A stretch of DNA of 64,000 nt. Source: Candidatus Gottesmanbacteria bacterium. Lineage in GTDB: Bacteria; Patescibacteriota; Microgenomatia; UBA10105; UBA927. Made by a program: the position numbers and the translations under genes. This document shows, piece by piece, positions 1 to 64,000 of this stretch; the stretch's first letter is position 1; each line of letters begins with the position of its first letter. The stretch spans positions 199,525 through 263,524 of the forward strand of contig CAVQFA010000005.1 of assembly GCA_963711735.1 (NCBI GenBank), read 5' to 3'. The notes beneath the pieces were generated by a model. The model saw nothing but the letters and a program-made list of their open reading frames with translations. It was not told where the DNA came from and ran no database searches.

Positions 1-9468
<9,468 letters not shown>

Positions 9469-52752: not shown

Positions 52753-53859
52753 GTGGCAGATTGTGAGGACAGGAAGTATTTTCTCGCATTCAGTGTATTT
52801 CCCGGCATAGGTCCGGTACGGTTTCGGCTTCTTTATTCATATTTCAAATCAGCACGTAATGCCTGGAACGCAACTGTCAAAGATCTTGAAGATACGGGAC
52901 TCTACAATTCACTCGTTTCACGTTTTGATGAGTTTAGGCACACATTCGATATACCTGCATATTGCAGTAAACTCGCACAAATGGGAATTTCCTATCTTTG
53001 TTATACGGATGAAAAATACCCCGGACTTCTGAGAGAAATTTCTGATGCACCTATCGTTATTTATGTTAAAGGAAAGCGGGGAAAAGAACCGATTTCACTC
53101 GAAAGGACCATCGTCGTTGTCGGTACCCGCCGTATTACACCATACGGTCAGACAGTAACCCAAAAATTTGTGGAAGGGCTCGTTTCGTATGGTTTTACTA
53201 TTGTTTCAGGTATGGCGTATGGTGTGGATGCAGTTGCTCATACTTCAGCCTTAAAAGCTGGCGGATCTACAATTGCAGTCCTCGGTTGCGGTATTGACAT
53301 TATTGCTCCACCAAGTAATGCTTACTTATATACTGATATTGCATTATGCGGCAGGGGAGCGATCGTGTCGGAAATGCCACTCGGTCTTCGGCCAGGGAAA
53401 GGGCTTTTTCCCGCACGCAACAGAATTATCAGCGGATTGTCGCTTGGGGTAGTTGTAACGGAAGGTGCAGATGATTCAGGATCGCTTATCACTGCGCGGT
53501 ATGCCCTGGATCAGGGTCGTGAAGTGTTTGCGGTCCCGGGACCGGTCACAAGTCCGTACAGTAAGGGGCCTGCAAAACTCATAAAAAACGGGGCAAAACT
53601 GATAGAAACGACGGAAGATATCGTAGAAGAATTAGGAATATTGCCGACAACGAAGGGAAAAACCGGAAAGTCAAAGTCTCTCGGGAATACGGAGAGTGAA
53701 CGGGTAATCATCAAAATGCTCGAAAACGGTCCAAGGCATATTGACGAGATAAAAGGTGTAACAAACTTGACATTATCAGATGTAGCCGCTACCCTAACGG
53801 TTCTTGAAATGCGGGGATGTGTGAAAAATCAGGGGGATGCAGTATATACACTTATATAA
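52753..53859 (+). CDS. dprA: DNA-processing protein DprA (Smf).
   Basis: Rossmann-like core VVGTRRITPYG...IVSGMAYGVDAVAHTSAL...AVLGCGID...GLFPARNRIISG. Confidence 0.85.
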   Translation: MADCEDRKYFLAFSVFPGIGPVRFRLLYSYFKSARNAWNATVKDLEDTGLYNSLVSRFDEFRHTFDIPAYCSKLAQMGISYLCYTDEKYPGLLREISDAPIVIYVKGKRGKEPISLERTIVVVGTRRITPYGQTVTQKFVEGLVSYGFTIVSGMAYGVDAVAHTSALKAGGSTIAVLGCGIDIIAPPSNAYLYTDIALCGRGAIVSEMPLGLRPGKGLFPARNRIISGLSLGVVVTEGADDSGSLITARYALDQGREVFAVPGPVTSPYSKGPAKLIKNGAKLIETTEDIVEELGILPTTKGKTGKSKSLGNTESERVIIKMLENGPRHIDEIKGVTNLTLSDVAATLTVLEMRGCVKNQGDAVYTLI

Positions 53860-53860
53860 T

Positions 53861-55933
53861 ATGAAATTAATTATTGTAGAATCACCGACAAAAGCAAAAA
53901 CACTGACCAAATTTTTAAAAGGAACATACCGTGTTGAAGCGACGCTCGGGCATATCCGCGATCTCCCGAAAGGGGATTTCGGTGTAGATACCCAGCACGC
54001 ATTTACTCCGAAATATATCATTCCCCGCGACAAGCAAAAGCACGTGACGGATTTAAAACACGCGGCTTCTTCATCTGACAGTGTCATTCTGGCAACCGAT
54101 CCTGACCGGGAAGGTGAGGCAATTGCCTGGCACGTAGCCTCAATACTTACATCTGACGGTCTGAAATCACCGGGAAAATCAAAGAAACCGAATTCCAAGG
54201 ACGGGAAATCTGATCTGAAACACGTAACTGTTTCCATTGAGAATATGGAAAGGATTGTGTTTCATGAAATAACCAAAACTGCAATAGAAGAAGCACTTGC
54301 TCATCCGCGTGTCATTGATATGAAACTTGTACACGCTCAACAAGCCAGAAGAATACTCGATCGGATTGTGGGATATAAATTATCACCGCTTCTCTGGCAA
54401 AAATTATCGCGGAGATGGCTTTCAGCCGGACGCGTTCAGTCAGTGACGGTGCGTCTTATTGTCGAGAGGGAGAGAGAAATTGAAGCATTTAAAAAGATCC
54501 AATTTGTAACAATTGAAGGTACGTTTTCGGATGCTGCATCCAAAGAGCAAATCAAGGCAACGCTGGCATCCAAAAACGGTGTTGGGTACGAAAAAAAAGC
54601 AACGTACCCCCTTTTTGACGGTGAGTATTCCGTCACATATACAAGCATTCCGTCAGTAGATGAAGGTAATGCCATCATAAATGACATCAAAGCGCCGTAT
54701 ACAGTTACTGCGGTTGATAAAAAGGAAATACGGCGATCACCGCCCTATCCGTTTACAACAAGCACGCTTCAGCAGGAAGCGGGAAGAAAACTCTATTTTT
54801 CATCCAAAAAAACCATGCAGGTTGCCCAGAAGCTGTATGAAGAAGGTATTATCACATATCACAGAACTGACAGTGTAAATTTAGCGGACAAATTCGTGAG
54901 TGAAGCACGTACGTATATTACGAAACAGTACGGAAGTGAGTATATACCAGAGACGCCGAAAGTATATCATACGAAATCCAAGGTAGCTCAGGAGGCGCAT
55001 GAAGCCATCCGTCCGACTGATGTTGCCGCGGATCCGGGATCGCTTGCTGAAAATCCGATGTTAAACCACGACCATGTCCGGTTGTATGAGCTTATATGGA
55101 AGCGGGCTCTTGCATGTCAGTCAAATGACGCTGTGTTTGATTCGACAACGATCGTCATAACATCAGCGAACGGTTATGCATATCAGACTCAGGGATCAAT
55201 AATTAAATTTGAAGGATTTCTCAAAATTCTCGGGAGAGAAAACGGAGAAGCGGTAATTCCAAAAGTTATGGTCGGACAGGAACTGACGCGTACGGATGCT
55301 GTATGTGTCGAACATGCCACCAACCCGCCTCCGCGGTATACGGAAAGCTCGCTTGTGAAAGCACTTGAGGAGAAAGAAATAGGCCGTCCGTCGACATATG
55401 CACCGATTATTTCCACAATTATTGAACGCAATTACGTCGTGAAAGAGGAAAAAAAGCTCAAACCCACGGAGCTCGGGATGGCCGTCGTTGATTTTCTTGT
55501 AAAATATTTTCCGGACATACTCAGTCTCCCGTTTACGGCATCTATGGAAGGACAGCTTGATGCCATAGCAAACGGCCAGACCGATTGGGTTCCTGTGGTT
55601 GCGGCATTTTATGAACCATTTGCCAAAACGCTCGATGCGGCTTACATTACCGCGGAAAAAGTAAAAATGACGGTGGAGGAGACGGGGGAGTTATGTCCTT
55701 TATGCAATAGTCCCCTGGTGCTTCGGATCGGAAGATACGGAAAATTTATAGCCTGCAGTACCTACCCAAAGTGTTCTTATACCAAGCAGTTCCTGGAAAA
55801 GATTGATATCAAATGCCCGAAATGCAGCAGCCCCATGGTTATGAAAAAAAGCCGGAGGGGTAAAATGTTTTACGGGTGTTCAAGCTACCCGAAATGCACA
55901 TTCGCCGCGTGGAAAAAGGAAGATATCAAGTAA
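53861..55933 (+). CDS. topA: DNA topoisomerase I.
   Basis: TOPRIM N-terminus MKLIIVESPTKAKTL...GHIRDLP, active-site Tyr region, and C-terminal C4 zinc ribbons (CPLCNSP...CSTYPKC; CPKCSSP...CSSYPKC). Confidence 0.9.
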   Translation: MKLIIVESPTKAKTLTKFLKGTYRVEATLGHIRDLPKGDFGVDTQHAFTPKYIIPRDKQKHVTDLKHAASSSDSVILATDPDREGEAIAWHVASILTSDGLKSPGKSKKPNSKDGKSDLKHVTVSIENMERIVFHEITKTAIEEALAHPRVIDMKLVHAQQARRILDRIVGYKLSPLLWQKLSRRWLSAGRVQSVTVRLIVEREREIEAFKKIQFVTIEGTFSDAASKEQIKATLASKNGVGYEKKATYPLFDGEYSVTYTSIPSVDEGNAIINDIKAPYTVTAVDKKEIRRSPPYPFTTSTLQQEAGRKLYFSSKKTMQVAQKLYEEGIITYHRTDSVNLADKFVSEARTYITKQYGSEYIPETPKVYHTKSKVAQEAHEAIRPTDVAADPGSLAENPMLNHDHVRLYELIWKRALACQSNDAVFDSTTIVITSANGYAYQTQGSIIKFEGFLKILGRENGEAVIPKVMVGQELTRTDAVCVEHATNPPPRYTESSLVKALEEKEIGRPSTYAPIISTIIERNYVVKEEKKLKPTELGMAVVDFLVKYFPDILSLPFTASMEGQLDAIANGQTDWVPVVAAFYEPFAKTLDAAYITAEKVKMTVEETGELCPLCNSPLVLRIGRYGKFIACSTYPKCSYTKQFLEKIDIKCPKCSSPMVMKKSRRGKMFYGCSSYPKCTFAAWKKEDIK

Positions 55934-58347: not shown

Positions 58348-59921
<1,574 letters not shown>

Positions 59922-60023
59922 TAATATAAAATTGTCAGTGATCACGAACTTCGATTGTATCGAAGGGTCGTTGACAGTTTTTCTCTCACAATGTTCCTAT
60001 CACCATCCGGTTGTTAAACAAAT

Positions 60024-60049
60024 TAATCCTCCTTTACGGAGGATTTTTT
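60024..60049 (+). terminator. Rho-independent terminator ~100 nt after the 16S 3' end.
   Basis: AATCCTCC-TTTAC-GGAGGATT followed by TTTTTG. Confidence 0.6.
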
Positions 60050-60243
60050 GTATCTTGTTTAATTCAGAATTACATTAAAATATTTCGTAACATATAGACT
60101 GTCAGAATGCTACGGATGCGTATAATATGATATGCATTTATACTATTAGTAATTGAGGCATGAGAATATACATGTTAAAATCGTTTCGTAGTGACGTTGC
60201 GATAAGGTGGCACAATTGATAATTTCAACCTGAATATGCATTT

Positions 60244-60273
60244 GGCGCGGTGGCGAAGTGGTAACGCGGGTGT
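60244..60273 (+). other. 30-nt partial duplicate of the tRNA-Cys 5' half (acceptor 5' strand + D-arm + anticodon-stem 5' strand).
   Basis: GGCGCGGTGGCGAAGTGGTAACGCGGGTGT vs tRNA-Cys GGCGCAATGGCGAAGTGGAAACGCGGGTGT (3 differences), then diverges. Confidence 0.5.
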
Positions 60274-60348
60274 TAGTCCCAGCACAATCATTCCAAATCT
60301 GAGAAGATTTTGGGAATAGATTTGCGGGATCCCGTATTTGCTAAATTC

Positions 60349-60419
60349 GGCGCAATGGCGAAGTGGAAACGCGGGTGTCTGCAAAACACCTATGCGAGGG
60401 TTCGATTCCCTCCGCGCCT
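60349..60419 (+). tRNA. trnC: tRNA-Cys (anticodon GCA), U73 discriminator; its own 5' acceptor strand pairs poorly with the 3' strand.
   Basis: GGTGT-CTGCAAA-ACACC anticodon arm, GAGGG-TTCGATT-CCCTC T-arm, 3' CCGCGCC-T. 5' GGCGCAA gives only 5/7 acceptor pairs, whereas the upstream partial copy GGCGCGG gives 7/7. Confidence 0.65.
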
Positions 60420-60667
60420 CAACTAAGCAAATACGGGACAAAAACAGCTACCCGCCTCGACTCGCAGAGACAGAGTCGATGCGAGGCGAGTGCAGCGGTT
60501 CGACCTGCCCCGCTGTAGTCCCGAGCTTATCGAAGGATGAAGGAGGGTTCAGGCACACGTAACAATTGTGATAAAATTAACAATCCGAGAGGGTTTACCC
60601 TGTAAATTTCAACGAGTCACGAAGTGACTCGCAAAGAAATATACAAGGTAAATTTTTGAAATTTACA

Positions 60668-60739
60668 GGGTGACTAGTTCATCGGTAGAACGCTTTCCTG
60701 ATAAGAAAGAGGCGCATGGTCCGACTCCATGGTCACCCA
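60668..60739 (+). tRNA. trnI: tRNA-Ile (anticodon GAT).
   Basis: GGGTGAC TA GTTC ATCGGTA GAAC G CTTTC CTGATAA GAAAG AGGCG CATGG TCCGACT CCATG GTCACCC A. Confidence 0.85.
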
Positions 60740-60786
60740 CTGCACAATTTCTTGAGTCACGGAGTTTGGATCGTATAATCGGGCTT

Positions 60787-61065
60787 ATGGATGATCCTAT
60801 ACAATTGAAAACAATAAATATCGGTCAAATTCCTTCGTATGAAATTGGATTGGTATCAGAGGCTGCACATGCTCTTGGTTTTCGTGTAAAAGGTACCTAC
60901 GGAACAGGGACATACTACAATGTTACCCCGACAAACAAGGAAATAACTGTCAGTGGCGGAAATTACGGGATCCTACTATCATATCCCGAAGATAAGGATG
61001 CTGGAAAATTTTGGGATAAATTTTTTGAACTTAAAGGTTCAAAAGGCCAAGTTCTCCTAACGTAG
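60787..61065 (+). CDS. Hypothetical 92-aa protein encoded between tRNA-Ile and its 3' direct repeat.
   Basis: The tracked ORF 60670..61065 begins inside the tRNA; first plausible ATG is 60787. No motif. Confidence 0.3.
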   Translation: MDDPIQLKTINIGQIPSYEIGLVSEAAHALGFRVKGTYGTGTYYNVTPTNKEITVSGGNYGILLSYPEDKDAGKFWDKFFELKGSKGQVLLT

Positions 61066-61183
61066 AAGCGGAATAATAAGTCATCCCTGATATTAATAGC
61101 AACTTTTGACCCCTTTCAATTCTATTTCCTCGATGGTACATTCAGAAGAATATAAAAAATAGTGAAGTTTGGGGCGTTATAAC

Positions 61184-61248
61184 AGTTCATCGGTAGAACG
61201 CTTTCCTGATAAGAAAGAGGCGCATGGTCCGACTCCATGGTCACCCAC
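61184..61248 (+). repeat. 65-nt exact direct repeat of tRNA-Ile positions ~9-76 (3' two-thirds, lacking the 5' acceptor strand); att-site-like.
   Basis: AGTTCATCGGTAGAACGCTTTCCTGATAAGAAAGAGGCGCATGGTCCGACTCCATGGTCACCCAC occurs at 60676-60740 and 61184-61248. Confidence 0.7.
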
Positions 61249-61272
61249 AAAGAGATATTCTACGAGACTTTT

Positions 61273-64000
61273 TTATATATTTTCTTCGCCTTTAAACCAT
61301 TCATAATAAACCGCAGGAATGAAAAGGAGCATAATTGTTGAAGCAATAAGAATTCCTGAAATTATTGCTCCTCCCAGTCCTCTCCATAGAGGATCAGCAA
61401 GAGTAATCGGTAATAGTCCTAGAACCGTACAGAGTTTTGTCAGAATGATGGGTTCAAGTCTGGATGCACCCGCGTCAGCAATAGCTTCTTTAAATCCCAT
61501 GCCCTCTTTTCTGTTGCGATTGATTTTATCAACGATAAACATGGAGTTTGTCACGACGATTCCGAAAAGAGACAGAATTCCGATAAGTGCCGGGAAAGAA
61601 AGCGGTGTTTGTGTAATGGCAAATATTACAAATACGGAGGATACAGCAAGCGGAATTACGAGTAACACGATAAATGCTTGTCGGTAAGACTGGAACTGAA
61701 CTACCATAGTGACCAATATGAGAATAAAGGCAAGAATCATTGCCTGTATTATGGATTGAACACTTTTTTTGTTTTCGTCGTTAATCCCTCCTGTTTTCCA
61801 CCCGTATCCTTCAGGAAGTTTCAGTGAATCTGCGAACGCTTCCAGTTGCTTGTTTATTTCAGTTGCGTTGTATCCGTTTTTAACAGACGCGGATACGGTC
61901 AAAGTCCGTTTGCCTCCTTCCCGTGTTATCGTTGTAGGATTGACCTGCGGGATAAAAGTCCCGAGAGAAACTAAAGGAACATAAGTACCTTGTGATGTAG
62001 GTATGAGTATCGATCCGAGCATTTCCGGGGTTTCTGTAAGTTTTCCGTATGTGAGTACAATATTTTCTTTGTCTTTAGCGCTTTTATCAAATTTGACATC
62101 TGCAAGAGTAAATCCACTTACAAATGTTCTCAGAGTGAGTCCGATCGTATCCATTGATACACCGTTTGCTGCTATTTTTTGCCGATCCGGCAGAAAAACG
62201 ATTTTACTCGTTCCTGGTTTTACACTTTTATCTATATTCGTTACTCCCGGTATTCCGGAAAGGTACGTTTGAATTTTATCCGCATATGTATCCAAAAAAC
62301 CCAAATCGTCACCCGAGAGTTTAATTGCTAAATCGGAGCCTGCCGGCGGCCCGGATGTAATTTCTGTTACGGACACTTTACCAGTTTCATACGTCTTAAA
62401 TGCATTCCGTACGGATTCTGCAATTTGTGAAGAAGGGGTCTTGCGCTTGTTTTTCCCAACAAGGTGGATAGTAGCAAGCGCCGTATTTGGTGTATCCACA
62501 GAACTTCCGAATGTTGACAGGGATGAACCGATATCGATGACTGTAAACAATGATTCGGGAGTCTTTCGTAATTTTTCGATCAGATTCAATCCGTCCGCGG
62601 TAACTGTATTGGTATTTGTACCCGGCGGAAGCTCAAGGGAAACATAGATTCTGTCTCCGTCTGTTTTTGGAAAAAATTCATTTTTGACAAATCCCATGGG
62701 AAGAAGGGCAAATGCCCAGAGAGCGTAGAGAATGATTCCGATGATAACTTTTTTACGTGCCTTGGGTGAATTAAGTATGTTTGTTATGAGCCAATAATAT
62801 TTGGAACTGACGAGTTCCAGATTAATAATTCCGTGATCAAAGTACCCATAAATTGTTTCGAAAACCGATTGAATTCCGTTTGATGACCGCAAAAACGTAA
62901 GTATGCGTTTTTTTATAGTAGGAAAGATTATATATATAACAAAGATAAGCAGGATATAAAGAACGGCGATCATCGGGAAGAGCGGATTTGACCGAAAAAC
63001 GAGTGTGAGTACGCTGAAAGAAAGTACTAGAAGTATAAACCTGAGAAGTACGGAAACCCGGTGTGCAATTGCAGGTTTCAGAAGTATGATGCATACTTGG
63101 CAGTGTAATCAGTACGGCAATTGCAGTGGATGATAGCATGGTTACAGTGACGACGACGGGTATGGGTTTTATAAATTCACCGATGATACCGGTTGAAAGA
63201 AGTAAAGGTACGAAAGACCAAATCGTCGTAATTGTCGTTGACCAGATTGGGACAATAAGGTCACGCCATACGACAAGTCCGGTTTGCGTCGGCGTAAACT
63301 TGCCGGTTCGATAATAGCTCGTCATAGCCTGCACGGTAACGATCGTATCATCAATCAGAAGTCCGAGCGCAATAAGAAACGCGAATAACGAAAGGAAATT
63401 AATAGACATTCCTGTATAACGCATAAAGAAAAAAGCTGAAAGGAACGTAAGTGGAACCGTAAGTGACGAAATAAGTGCCTGTCTCAGTCCCAAAAAAACG
63501 AATAAACATGCCATGACAAGAAGTATGGTGGAACGGAACTCTCCTACAAGTTCATTAAATTGATCTGTTATGTCTTCGGCGGCGTTGACAATTGTATCAA
63601 TTGAATATTCATCACCATACAAATGTATAAGTTTATAAACGATACGTTTCACGTCAGTATCGACTACATCAAAATTCACGTTTGTGTTTTTGTATACGCT
63701 CATAGTGACTGTTCGTTGCGGTTTTGTTTCTCTGTCAGCGTAATACGACGGAAGGATGTTCTCGTTTGAAATTTCCATAATTGTACTGATATCACCGAGT
63801 TTGACGGGAGTTCCGGAGACTGAAATACGGGTATTACGGAGATCTTCGAGTGTTGTTATCGTAGGATCGATTGTCAGTGAAAAGGAATTTATAGAGGTAT
63901 TTACTGATCCGGCTGGGTAGGAAGCAATTGCTGTTTTTACGGCTTGGCTGACCGCAATGGGATTTATGCCGAAATCACGCATTTTTTCAGGGGATAGCGT
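61273..64000 (-). CDS. RND-superfamily (AcrB-like) efflux transporter; start beyond window end, interrupted by an apparent 1-nt frameshift near 63091-63097.
   Basis: Two overlapping minus-strand ORFs (62837..63982 and 61273..62973) in different frames. Hand translation shows ...IAVLITLPS then, after a +1 shift, CIILLKPAIAH... (cf. AcrB LTPALCATMLKP). TM block LGLLIDDTIVTVQ. Confidence 0.7.

Follow-up and report, generated by a model that had tools for sequence, protein, structure and literature searches.

The tRNA-Cys locus in this 64,000-nt stretch of Candidatus Gottesmanbacteria DNA (contig CAVQFA010000005.1; hereafter the window) is probably the nuclease-less relic of a mobile "disrupt-and-replace" tRNA cassette, a reading to which we assign a probability of about 0.6. 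A complete tRNA-Cys gene lies here inside a second, broken one, within an insert of two abutting hairpins (TCC...GGA/TCC...GGA) between G34 and C35, the second hairpin enclosing the whole inner tRNA. Judged by comparison of sequences, the piece upstream of the complete gene is what is left of the 5' half of another tRNA-Cys gene, an older one, interrupted after G34, and the same split-and-replace pattern recurs in related ultra-small (CPR) bacteria, often beside a small GIY-YIG nuclease gene.

Layout of the tRNA-Cys locus

60025..60045, + strand: terminator-like hairpin after the 16S rRNA gene (58351-59920)
60099..60126, + strand: sigma-70-like promoter, CTGTCA-16-TATAAT
60244..60276, + strand: outer tRNA-Cys 5' piece, positions 1-34 (GGCGCGG...GGGTGT plus TAG); contains the 30-nt copy
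60277..60329, + strand: hairpin 1 (TCCCaGCA...TGCGGGA) with nested distal hairpin CCAAATC/GATTTTGG; four compensatory pairs relative to L099, none broken
60330..60347, + strand: hairpin 2 left arm, TCCCGTATTTGCTAAATT; adjoins hairpin 1 as GGGA/TCCC
60349..60419, + strand: inner tRNA-Cys(GCA); cloverleaf sound apart from the acceptor stem
60421..60438, + strand: hairpin 2 right arm, AACTAAGCAAATACGGGA; the insert ends in ...GGGA
60439..60450, + strand: start of the outer tRNA-Cys 3' piece (positions 35-46), CAAAAACAGCTA; L099 counterpart CAAAACAGCTA
60451..60490, + strand: E2, a 40-nt palindromic insertion within the outer 3' piece
60491..60503, + strand: remainder of the outer tRNA-Cys 3' piece (positions 46-58), TGCAGCGGTTCGA; L099 has the same sequence
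60504..60553, + strand: palindromic element E3, from the T loop of the outer piece onward; homologue in L031

The sequence-only reading had reported a 30-nt near-copy of the start of the tRNA-Cys gene 105 nt upstream of it, and this was borne out: 60244-60273 and 60349-60378 are identical at 27/30 positions (the three mismatches are at positions 6, 7 and 19), and zero repeats of such quality are expected in shuffles. With the functional tRNA-Cys of the relatives closest by TopA (L009, L020, L051 and L074), the outer 5' piece agrees at 29/30 positions. At the other end, the outer 3' piece (CAAAA(A)CAGCTA...TGCAGCGGTTCGA) equals the outer 3' piece of L099, an unrelated metagenome contig with another gene context, in which the order is likewise 5' piece, hairpin 1, arm, full tRNA-Cys, arm, 3' piece. 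Both in the window and in L099 the outer 5' and 3' pieces are mutually non-cognate, which implies a history of more than one event. The downstream remnant (60439-60450 and 60491-60503, tRNA positions 35-58) had been absent from the sequence-only reading.

The 75-nt spacer was said to hold two hairpins, and the region does fold strongly (z = -3.7 over 60230-60445), but one of them, GCGGGATCCCGT, is no hairpin by itself: it is the junction of the 3' arm of the hairpin at 60277-60329 with the 5' arm of an 18-nt inverted repeat (60330-60347/60421-60438). Of the small palindromes further downstream, E2 has a counterpart of 90% identity inserted in frame in the L047 TopA gene, and the junction of E3, GGTTCGA/CTTGCCCCG, recurs in L102. 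The stretch CCGCT...CCCGAGCTT (60510-60528) was considered as the outer T stem and acceptor strand and was dropped, as it belongs to the palindromic element (L031 homologue, L102 T-loop junction).

On a simpler view, a local tandem duplication of about 105 nt, through slippage or unequal crossing-over, would have produced a copy of the tRNA-Cys 5' third that later decayed, the hairpins being incidental. This would account for direct repeats 105 nt apart and for a 10-nt repeat, ATATGCATTT, at the same spacing (60130 and 60234). The upstream copy, however, agrees better with the relatives' genes (29/30) than with the gene beside it (27/30), part of the 3' side of another tRNA-Cys persists downstream, the nested layout is also found in another genome, L099, and the break falls exactly at 34/35, as in at least eight other loci. 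The 10-nt repeat, tried also as proof of a 104-nt insertion, is suggestively placed, but in 1.5 kb such a 10-mer is at chance level. We consider tandem duplication very unlikely.

The inner tRNA-Cys gene

ARAGORN and Rfam agree on the full tRNA-Cys(GCA) that had been recognized at 60349-60419 (called at 60348/9-60419/20). The gene has the GCA anticodon, U73, an A13:A22-type D stem and a model-recognised cloverleaf of a bacterial tRNA-Cys, and its D arm (GCGA/ACGC) and U73 agree with those of relatives; CCA is not encoded. What it lacks is a 7-bp acceptor stem. Its own 5' strand is GGCGCAA, as first described, and the five acceptor pairs counted at that time are the five Watson-Crick pairs that ARAGORN draws. 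The 3' acceptor strand given as CCGCGCC needs correction, since it includes C65, taken from the T stem: the 5-bp T stem GAGGG/CCCTC leaves a 6-nt strand, CGCGCC, before U73, and Rfam shows a deletion in this strand. The lesions are thus A6 facing C67 and an absent nucleotide 66 (or 65). The Rfam RF00005 score is 47.5 bits (gathering score 29), 10-20 bits below the tRNA-Cys of eight relatives (57-67 bits). Comparison of 22 distinct tRNA-Cys sequences, 21 from relatives and the window's own, gave acceptor pairing of 7/7 in 21/21 relatives; the window's gene is the sole exception.

The inner tRNA-Cys is probably impaired by these two lesions at the base of the acceptor stem, and the organism's tRNA-Cys may be impaired or may be encoded elsewhere in the genome; were the inner gene non-functional, the idea of replacement would require a second tRNA-Cys elsewhere. 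The gene may be a hybrid of donor and host, or may be of the L099 type and have acquired two point lesions; two events are needed either way.

The claim that the acceptor stem is completed only by the upstream copy proved largely trivial. The upstream GGCGCGG does make six pairs with the 3' strand, but reaches 7/7 only by giving up a T-stem pair, and 6/7 of the claimed pairs would form with any tRNA-Cys of the group, most of which share G1-G6/C67-C72. This complementarity reflects family-wide conservation of pairs 1-6 and is no sign of functional partnership, although a hybrid origin of the inner gene may be an additional source. Of the three readings first offered, a decaying duplicate beside a damaged gene comes closest: the full gene is damaged (47.5 bits, five pairs), but the upstream piece is no tandem duplicate.

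A second of those readings was sequencing or assembly error, the true acceptor stem being normal and the lesions or the repeat being artefacts of metagenome assembly. The window does come from a MAG-type contig, a second 1-nt indel breaks an AcrB-like gene 2.7 kb away, and the missing base falls in a C run, CCCTCCGCG; error is possible for this single base. It would nevertheless have to produce the A6 and A7 substitutions and the deletion all within one 71-nt gene, neither indel lies in a long homopolymer, and the repeat architecture, present independently in L099, is left unexplained. We regard such an error as an unlikely source of the locus.

Related loci in other Patescibacteria

Between the window and L099, the hairpins differ by five compensatory pairs and no broken ones. 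The inner tRNA of L099 is perfect, and its outer 5' piece has decayed, forming 4/7 pairs with any partner. Apart from the window, L099 is the only case that we found of a tRNA inside the hairpin. Viral collections, scanned for patterns of the 5' half of the tRNA and of three junctions (double hairpin at 34/35, hairpin 2 with tRNA, and 3'), gave zero or chance matches.

In other Patescibacteria, a redundant tRNA-Cys copy is interrupted exactly at 34/35 by a double hairpin of 30 nt, usually with a GIY-YIG ORF adjoining an intact replacement tRNA. Hairpin inserts directly after G34 of a redundant tRNA-Cys were found in L029, L091, L096 (twice), L102 (at least two), L103 and L104. The 30-nt element has a 6-3-6/6-3-6 geometry with TC...GA ends and a strong preference for TG/CAAAA, which is anticodon position 34/35 of tRNA-Cys; covariance-model matches reach down to E = 7e-9. 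Its positions are 97% paired and six pairs are changed on both sides, pairing statistics that are inflated by the partial gathering of elements through a scan for perfect hairpins. It also stands in frame within a penicillin-binding-protein gene (L013, L029) and TopA (L021), and is thus inserted at the DNA level. Among the relatives the element recurs at multiple positions and across multiple genomes, and compensatory changes preserve its stems, as in known mobile elements of the double-hairpin kind. tRNA fragments occur at 7 of about 35 Cys/Ile loci; in all related loci the interrupted copies are incomplete and each has an intact copy alongside. A Moranbacteria locus recurs as a whole unit, remnants included, in L108 beside a different upstream flank.

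The window shares with these elements two abutting hairpins, the same ends and the same tRNA site. We found no canonical 30-nt double hairpin in the window, and covariance model R1, run over 60277-60438 with filters off, gave no match to the 30-nt element. The window's large hairpins are tied to it by position 34/35, the end motifs (TCC...GGA/TCC...GGA) and design, not by sequence homology.

The GIY-YIG ORFs (Pfam PF01541, E about 1e-16) are 82-85 aa long, consist of the catalytic domain only and belong to a family spread throughout Patescibacteria. In L015, L020, L029, L091, L096, L102 and L104 the ORF adjoins an intact tRNA-Cys or tRNA-Ile, and ahead of it stands a partial 5' copy of the same tRNA with the double hairpin inside; an ORF lies beside the affected gene in these loci and in L103. 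The intact tRNA follows the ORF within 0-5 nt, and the 30-nt double hairpin occupies the tRNA site that is interrupted in the window. In the window, tblastn returned no match to a GIY-YIG gene or remnant at E < 10.

These loci also bear on whether the window holds an interrupted gene that still works. A group I tRNA intron spans about 200 nt or more and has a P1-P9 core, with U ending the 5' exon and G ending the intron; the window's insert (60277-60438) consists mostly of tRNA and hairpins, comes after G34 and has A as its last base. Among archaeal-type tRNAs, the split, permuted and BHB-intron forms have intact, complementary halves that make an uninterrupted copy unnecessary; here the halves are non-cognate, the 3' piece stops at 58 and carries insertions, and an uninterrupted copy sits inside. 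The third of the original readings, a functional interrupted or permuted tRNA in which splicing of about 105 nt, or else pairing in trans, would unite the upstream 5' half with the downstream 3' half, could draw on the 6-7 pairs that GGCGCGG makes with the 3' strand (five for GGCGCAA), on an undecayed upstream piece, and on a break in the anticodon loop, where bacterial group I (PMC3984707) and archaeal introns sit. However, no Rfam intron or ribozyme matches at E <= 1, 105 nt lacking U/omega-G boundaries is too short for a group I intron, and the joined product would still be one base short. In L099 it is the outer 5' piece that has decayed and the inner gene that is perfect, the relatives' interrupted copies are all truncated and redundant, and the hairpin element is also found in frame in protein genes. 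This reading is extremely unlikely.

Proposed history of the locus

The disrupt-and-replace reading would run as follows. An older, outer tRNA-Cys would have sat just downstream of the 16S gene and the promoter, until an insert of two hairpins, each TCC...GGA, broke it between anticodon G34 and C35, carrying a complete tRNA-Cys in the loop of its second hairpin. The outer 5' half (60244-60276) would have been left beside the promoter, and the outer 3' part (60439-60503) downstream, where further small palindromic insertions would later have struck it. The promoter at 60099..60126 presumably drives the whole tRNA-Cys composite; in relatives, a TATAAT/TAAAAT box lies 7-13 nt ahead of the tRNA-Cys. 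The transcript from the old promoter would pass the dead 5' half and hairpin 1, and the inner tRNA, atop a 12-18 bp helix, would be freed by RNase P and 3' processing, receive CCA and serve as the working tRNA-Cys of the locus.

From the arrangement in relatives we infer that the GIY-YIG nuclease cleaves tRNA genes, and that homing-type double-strand-break repair would then copy nuclease, tRNA and hairpins into the resident tRNA gene, leaving its displaced halves. The window and L099 would be nuclease-less versions of this nuclease/tRNA unit. More tentatively, and with rather less than even confidence, we propose that CPR bacteria harbor a new kind of selfish, intron-like but non-splicing insert at G34/C35 of tRNA-Cys and in other loops of tRNA-Ile that brings a full replacement tRNA. 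Autonomous copies would encode the minimal GIY-YIG nuclease, with the 30-nt double hairpin as cognate site, and the window would be a nuclease-less derivative whose rescue tRNA, in the second hairpin, is itself decaying. If true, this would be a natural "cleave-and-rescue" design in which the host is made dependent on the element's tRNA copy.

Comparison with known systems

The SegB of phage T4 and tRNA clusters were reportedly treated by Brok-Volchanskaya et al. in 2008. SegB is a free-standing GIY-YIG homing endonuclease gene in a tRNA cluster (PMC13096335), and the relatives similarly have a small GIY-YIG gene beside tRNA genes. Its inheritance probably depends on cutting of the homologous tRNA region, after which repair carries over the nuclease gene along with neighboring tRNA sequence, and it also drives segmental amplification of tRNA loci. 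In contrast, the loci described here are in cellular CPR genomes and not in phage, the nuclease is an 82-85 aa catalytic domain alone, the resident tRNA is left as displaced halves while the ORF brings along a complete replacement tRNA, a double hairpin stands at the break, and the window has no nuclease gene.

The double hairpins resemble mitochondrial hairpin elements, namely Allomyces DHEs (Paquin, Laforest & Lang 2000), yeast GC clusters and sponge RHEs (PMC2800124). Both are short, dispersed and apparently mobile, consist of two adjacent hairpins, occupy intergenic DNA, structural RNA genes and in-frame sites in protein genes, are kept in transcripts and conserve their stems through compensatory change. 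Those elements are organellar, whereas the CPR ones are in free-living or episymbiotic Patescibacteria and have a length of 30 nt, the 6-3-6/6-3-6 geometry, the 34/35 preference and the link to a GIY-YIG/tRNA cassette; the window's hairpins are expanded and enclose a tRNA. Paquin et al. reportedly described in 1994 an Allomyces atp6 hybrid gene, in which insertion of an endonuclease ORF duplicated part of the target. There, as in other fungal mitochondrial duplicated 3' ends, a mobile ORF brings a copy of the displaced gene part, the gene stays functional with a pseudogene fragment alongside, and hybrid genes are possible; here, by contrast, a tRNA gene is hit, the copy that arrives is of the entire gene, and 5' and 3' fragments both persist.

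Rickettsia palindromic elements (mentioned in PMC1779305), reportedly described by Ogata et al. in 2000, are likewise selfish palindromes in frame in protein genes and in RNA genes of a reduced bacterial genome. They are, however, 100-150 bp long and without tRNA anticodon-loop specificity, and we know of no nuclease associated with them. Split, permuted and intron-containing tRNA genes share the interruption of the anticodon loop and the complementary sequences flanking the pieces, but our loci have no BHB motif and no ribozyme, and the interrupted copy is dead while a separate intact copy works. In the window, long inverted repeats surround the tRNA-Cys as well as the tRNA-Ile, which recalls Neurospora mitochondrial tRNA genes flanked by GC-rich palindromes (Yin, Heckman & RajBhandary 1981, cited in PMC2800124). 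The Neurospora genes are bracketed by conserved palindromes that are possible processing signals; the sequences and the organism differ, and the bracket in the window belongs to an insert that interrupts a further tRNA gene.

In the literature searched, we found no description of miniature double-hairpin mobile DNA, so far organellar, in Patescibacteria, of its preference for the tRNA-Cys anticodon loop, or of minimal GIY-YIG nucleases coupled to replacement tRNA genes and double-hairpin DNA. tRNA fragments and odd acceptor stems in CPR genomes may accordingly be scars of disruption and replacement, not errors or exotic split tRNAs. Should the link between nuclease and hairpin hold, it would offer a small, testable system in which DNA is targeted by sequence or structure, and a natural element that secures its own retention through replacement of an essential gene.

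The neighboring tRNA-Ile locus

60597..60671, + strand: inverted repeat, 16 nt and perfect, around an inner hairpin (60613-60631); the right arm of the repeat extends 4 nt into the start of the tRNA-Ile
60668..60740, + strand: tRNA-Ile(GAT), intact (ARAGORN/Rfam)
60741..61183, + strand: insert of 443 nt; contains a promoter-like site (60752-60779) and an orphan ORF of 92 aa (60787-61065)
61184..61248, + strand: displaced 3' part, a perfect 65-nt copy of tRNA-Ile positions 9-73

A further rival reading is the scar of an integrase-type island, in which an integrative element or prophage would have entered a tRNA gene and then lost its interior, leaving attL/attR direct repeats of the tRNA. tRNA genes are classical integration sites, several relatives have tRNA fragments, and the tRNA-Ile has the textbook layout of full gene, insert and perfect 65-nt 3' partial copy. 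The repeat geometry of an integrase island is thus present for tRNA-Ile but not for tRNA-Cys, where the repeat is the 5' part instead of the 3' part and where just 75 nt, conserved with covariation in L099, separate the repeats. No integrase was present among the examined ORFs adjoining the locus, the 443-nt tRNA-Ile insert codes for the orphan ORF only, the relatives' junctions bear GIY-YIG nucleases and not integrases, and hairpin-flanked junctions are found in anticodon, D and T loops. We consider an integrase scar quite unlikely.

For the 92-aa ORF, neither Pfam nor NCBIfam gave a match, and the databases returned nothing but the ORF itself. Rfam at E <= 1 over 59800-64000 detected nothing besides the tRNAs and the 16S end. 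The perfect 65-nt tRNA-Ile repeat (61184-61248) had been absent from the sequence-only reading.

Genomic context

The tRNA-Cys composite follows the 16S rRNA gene in the order 16S, tRNA-Cys, tRNA-Ile, which many of the relatives compared here also keep. No 23S gene is present in the rest of the window past the 16S rRNA gene and tRNAs (about 3.3-4 kb). The window's TopA shares at most 65% identity with TopA from Candidatus Gottesmanbacteria and Microgenomates MAGs, a resemblance from which the organism is taken to be a CPR (Patescibacteria) bacterium. The features discussed are as follows.

53837-55933, TopA gene
58351-59920, 16S rRNA gene, followed by tRNA-Cys(GCA) and tRNA-Ile(GAT)
60025-60045, terminator-like hairpin closing the 16S rRNA gene
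60099-60126, promoter-like site upstream of the tRNA-Cys composite
60277-60329, hairpin 1 (TCCCaGCA...TGCGGGA)
60330-60347 and 60421-60438, arms of hairpin 2 (TCCCGTATTTGC...GCAAATACGGGA), whose loop holds the whole inner tRNA
60439-60450, first part of the outer tRNA-Cys 3' piece (CAAAAACAGCTA), after the right arm of hairpin 2
60451-60490, 40-nt hairpin inside the outer 3' piece
60491-60503, second part of the outer 3' piece (TGCAGCGGTTCGA)

The 10-mer ATATGCATTT stands directly after the TATAAT box and again directly before the outer tRNA-Cys piece, at a spacing of 104 (60130-60243); in relatives, the -10 box lies 7-13 nt from the tRNA. The 94 nt between the two copies may be one more insertion, a lone 10-mer repeat being at chance level. 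A 15-mer, TCCGGTGCAACCGGA, occurs seven times at 466-3432 within long ORFs (272-5092) and is probably a repeated protein motif rather than a hairpin element.

A complete tRNA-Cys nested in a dead one

The 30-nt near-copy of the tRNA-Cys 5' part that the sequence-only reading had reported was confirmed: 60244-60273 (GGCGCGGTGGCGAAGTGGTAACGCGGGTGT) matches 60349-60378 with mismatches at 6, 7 and 19, and no such match was found in shuffled sequences. This copy agrees at 29 of 30 positions with the functional tRNA-Cys of the nearest relatives (L009, L020, L051 and L074), versus 27 of 30 for the adjacent gene. A metagenome scan using a tRNA-Cys 5'-half pattern retrieved 21 loci, including L099, which has the same order as the window composite: a 5' tRNA-Cys piece, a hairpin, GCGGGATCCCGTAATTGCTAAATTC, a complete tRNA-Cys, ACTAAGCAATGTACGGGA and CAAAACAGCTATGCAGCGGTTCGATTCCGCTCCGAGCCTCCA, the last being tRNA-Cys positions 35-76. 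The 3' pieces of the window match the first 24 nt of this L099 piece (positions 35-58) except for an additional A and the intervening hairpin. An outer tRNA-Cys therefore exists, with its 5' part running to position 34 (60276) and its 3' part starting from 35 (60439), and all sequence between 60276 and 60439 is insert. The stems of the window and L099 differ by five compensatory changes with zero broken pairs, and L099 is flanked by unrelated genes with no 16S gene adjoining. GCGGGATCCCGT, previously drawn as a hairpin of its own, is actually the seam of hairpins 1 and 2 (GGGA|TCCC). The outer pieces are non-cognate in both genomes (anticodon-stem strands GGTGT vs ACAGC in the window; acceptor strands GACGCGA vs CCGAGCC in L099), which suggests that the insert moved with the 3' piece, each time into a different resident gene.

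The full tRNA-Cys was called by both ARAGORN and Rfam (47.5 bits). Its T arm, GAGGG-TTCGATT-CCCTC, leaves six bases, CGCGCC, ahead of U73; C65, which had been counted in a 3' acceptor strand CCGCGCC, belongs to the T stem, and the acceptor is worse than had been claimed. ARAGORN drew five acceptor pairs rather than a normal well-paired acceptor, and the Rfam alignment contains one deletion there and two non-standard pairs. Across 22 distinct tRNA-Cys genes (21 from relatives plus that of the window), all relatives have 7/7 acceptor pairs and U73, the window being the sole exception, and its Rfam score lies 10-20 bits under those of eight relatives (57-67 bits).

The upstream strand had also been credited with 7/7 pairing to the full gene. 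Six of these pairs are clean and the seventh costs a T-stem pair; because G1-G6/C67-C72 is common to most of the compared tRNA-Cys genes, such "completion" is largely what the 5' strand of any tRNA-Cys of the group would give. Cooperation between the upstream strand and the full gene is unsupported: L099 combines a perfect inner tRNA (GGCGCGA/TCGCGCC, 65 bits) with a decayed outer 5' piece, so the architecture is independent of the outer 5' strand. As for a decaying duplicate beside a damaged gene, the damage is real, and what looked like a duplicate is one half of an interrupted, dead tRNA-Cys that encloses the full gene. The inner full gene is a damaged replacement copy.

Its lesions could go back to point events in a gene like that of L099 (G6 to A, T66 lost). 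Alternatively, they could mark a donor/host hybrid in which a GGCGCAA 5' strand from the donor meets a ...CCCT(T)CCGCGCC 3' end from the host, which would also account for the old 5' half fitting the inner 3' strand. Of the lesions, the missing base might be a sequencing or consensus error, which would not explain A6/A7 or the nested architecture. A +1 frameshift (CCA|A|GTA, outside any long homopolymer) in an AcrB-like gene 2.7 kb off indicates that single-base lesions occur here, through decay or consensus error. The AcrB/RND-type transporter gene (61273-63982, minus strand) is split by this frameshift, near 63085, into two overlapping ORFs and is a pseudogene unless the consensus is wrong. 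A second tRNA-Cys may lie beyond the window.

Double-hairpin elements in relatives

Of about 35 Cys/Ile loci, seven contain tRNA fragments. The break falls exactly after G34 of a redundant tRNA-Cys copy in L029, L091, L096 (twice), L102 (at least twice), L103 and L104, as in L091 (GCTGT CTG|TCTCCCtacGGGAGA TCTGCCgcaGGCAGA|CAAAAC) and in L104 from Moranbacteria (GGTAGGTCTG|TCTGGCtatGCCAGA TCTCGCgtaGCGAGA|CAAAACCC). The 30-nt insert consists of two abutting 15-nt hairpins, each closing a 3-nt loop with a 6-bp stem, starting with TC and ending with GA to give the seam GA|TC. In nine aligned copies, 97% of positions are paired, six pairs are changed on both sides and the main measures exceed every shuffle; most of these copies came from a perfect-hairpin scan, so that the pairing is partly built in, while the tandem geometry and recurrent tRNA position are not.

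A covariance model found further copies in frame in a penicillin-binding-protein gene (L013 and L029, at one site) and in TopA (L021), and the element is therefore a DNA insertion that is not spliced. These lie at 4802-4831 in L013, 5635-5701 in L029 (two in tandem) and 10312-10341 in L021, each in-frame copy adding 10 codons. Element flanks are often TG|CAAAA-like, as is the tRNA-Cys anticodon loop, CTG|CAAAA. In L102 (2750-3150), downstream of a GIY-YIG/tRNA-Cys unit, tandem tRNA-Cys 3' halves each follow the same double hairpin at 34/35, part of this array being N-masked.

GIY-YIG cassettes and a proposed mechanism

Cassettes occur with tRNA-Cys in L091, L096, L102 and L104 and with tRNA-Ile in L015, L020 and L029, in the order promoter, tRNA 5' piece, 82-85 aa ORF, stop codon, 0-5 nt and intact tRNA. 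The 5' pieces, which reach tRNA position 11, 20, 29, 40 or 42, contain a double hairpin 6-10 nt short of their end; displaced 3' pieces, likewise with hairpins, often trail the cassette. Each ORF encodes just the catalytic domain of a GIY-YIG nuclease (PF01541, E about 1e-16); their family has 193 close members across Patescibacteria, and the related nucleases of L091 and L102 are accompanied by identical double hairpins. The entire Moranbacteria unit, including remnants, has another upstream flank in L108. The outer 5' piece of L020 (GGGCGGC...), which equals the L009 tRNA-Ile, has its cognate strand in the final 3' remnant (...GCCGCCC); a resident gene was therefore split there, and a different tRNA-Ile took over.

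The combined pattern fits homing-type repair, from which we infer a mechanism. A resident tRNA gene would be broken and repaired from a donor carrying nuclease and tRNA, and non-homologous joining on one side would leave the displaced tRNA halves. In the window, transcription starting from the 60099-60126 site would cover hairpin 1 and the inner tRNA as well as the dead 5' half. The inner tRNA sits atop a 12-18 bp helix; RNase P and 3'-end processing would excise it, after which CCA would be added, since none is encoded.

Neither the canonical 30-nt double hairpin nor a GIY-YIG gene or remnant was found within the window. Its hairpins share with the 30-nt element position 34/35, the TCC...GGA|TCC...GGA ends and the two-hairpin design, and nothing more. 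The window and L099 are read as a putative nuclease-less, elaborated derivative of the cassette; the window locus is a relic, not an active element.

In fungal mitochondria, endonuclease ORFs bring along a duplicate of the displaced stretch of the gene. These ORFs, T4 SegB, mitochondrial hairpin elements and Rickettsia palindromic elements are the closest precedents for the cassettes and hairpins. Free-standing GIY-YIG homing endonucleases such as T4 SegB occur in tRNA clusters (PMC13096335), and mitochondrial double-hairpin or repetitive hairpin-forming elements, according to a passage in PMC2800124 citing Paquin, Laforest & Lang 2000, also occur in rRNA and protein genes and are kept in transcripts. 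Our literature search retrieved no paper placing elements of this kind in Patescibacteria or in the anticodon loops of tRNAs. The recurrent 34/35 insert and the nuclease/tRNA cassettes are the chief interest here.

Other palindromic elements and tRNA-Ile loci

Further short palindromes behave like the 30-nt element. An in-frame TopA insert in the comparison locus L047 (9672-9709) shares 90% identity with the 40-nt hairpin at 60451-60490, and the two define a second mobile hairpin family, a 38-40-nt palindrome (CCCGCCTCGAyTCGC..GAGTCGAyGCGAGGCG). The palindromic sequence at 60504-60553 has a homologue in another locus, L031 (9137-9188). This third element begins within the dead tRNA-Cys, at its T loop (GGTTCGA|CyTGCCCCG), a junction that recurs in L102 after the last tRNA-Cys 3' half. 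The best long perfect inverted repeat of the entire window, of 16 nt (ACCCTGTAAATTTCAA / TTGAAATTTACAGGGT), lies at 60597-60671 around a perfect hairpin (60613-60631), its right arm spanning the first four bases of tRNA-Ile.

After tRNA-Ile(GAT) come 443 nt of inserted sequence and then, at a spacing of 508, a perfect 65-nt repeat of its positions 9-73, the whole spanning 60668-61248. The insert contains a promoter-like site and a 92-aa ORF (60787-61065) with no family match, whose sole match in 5.8 billion proteins is itself. In the comparison locus L081 (7230-7401, minus strand), a complete inner tRNA-Ile takes the place of the anticodon arm of an outer tRNA-Ile whose two ends are complementary (GCGCGCT ... 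AGCGCGC), and an imperfect inverted repeat lies on the flanks of the inner gene.
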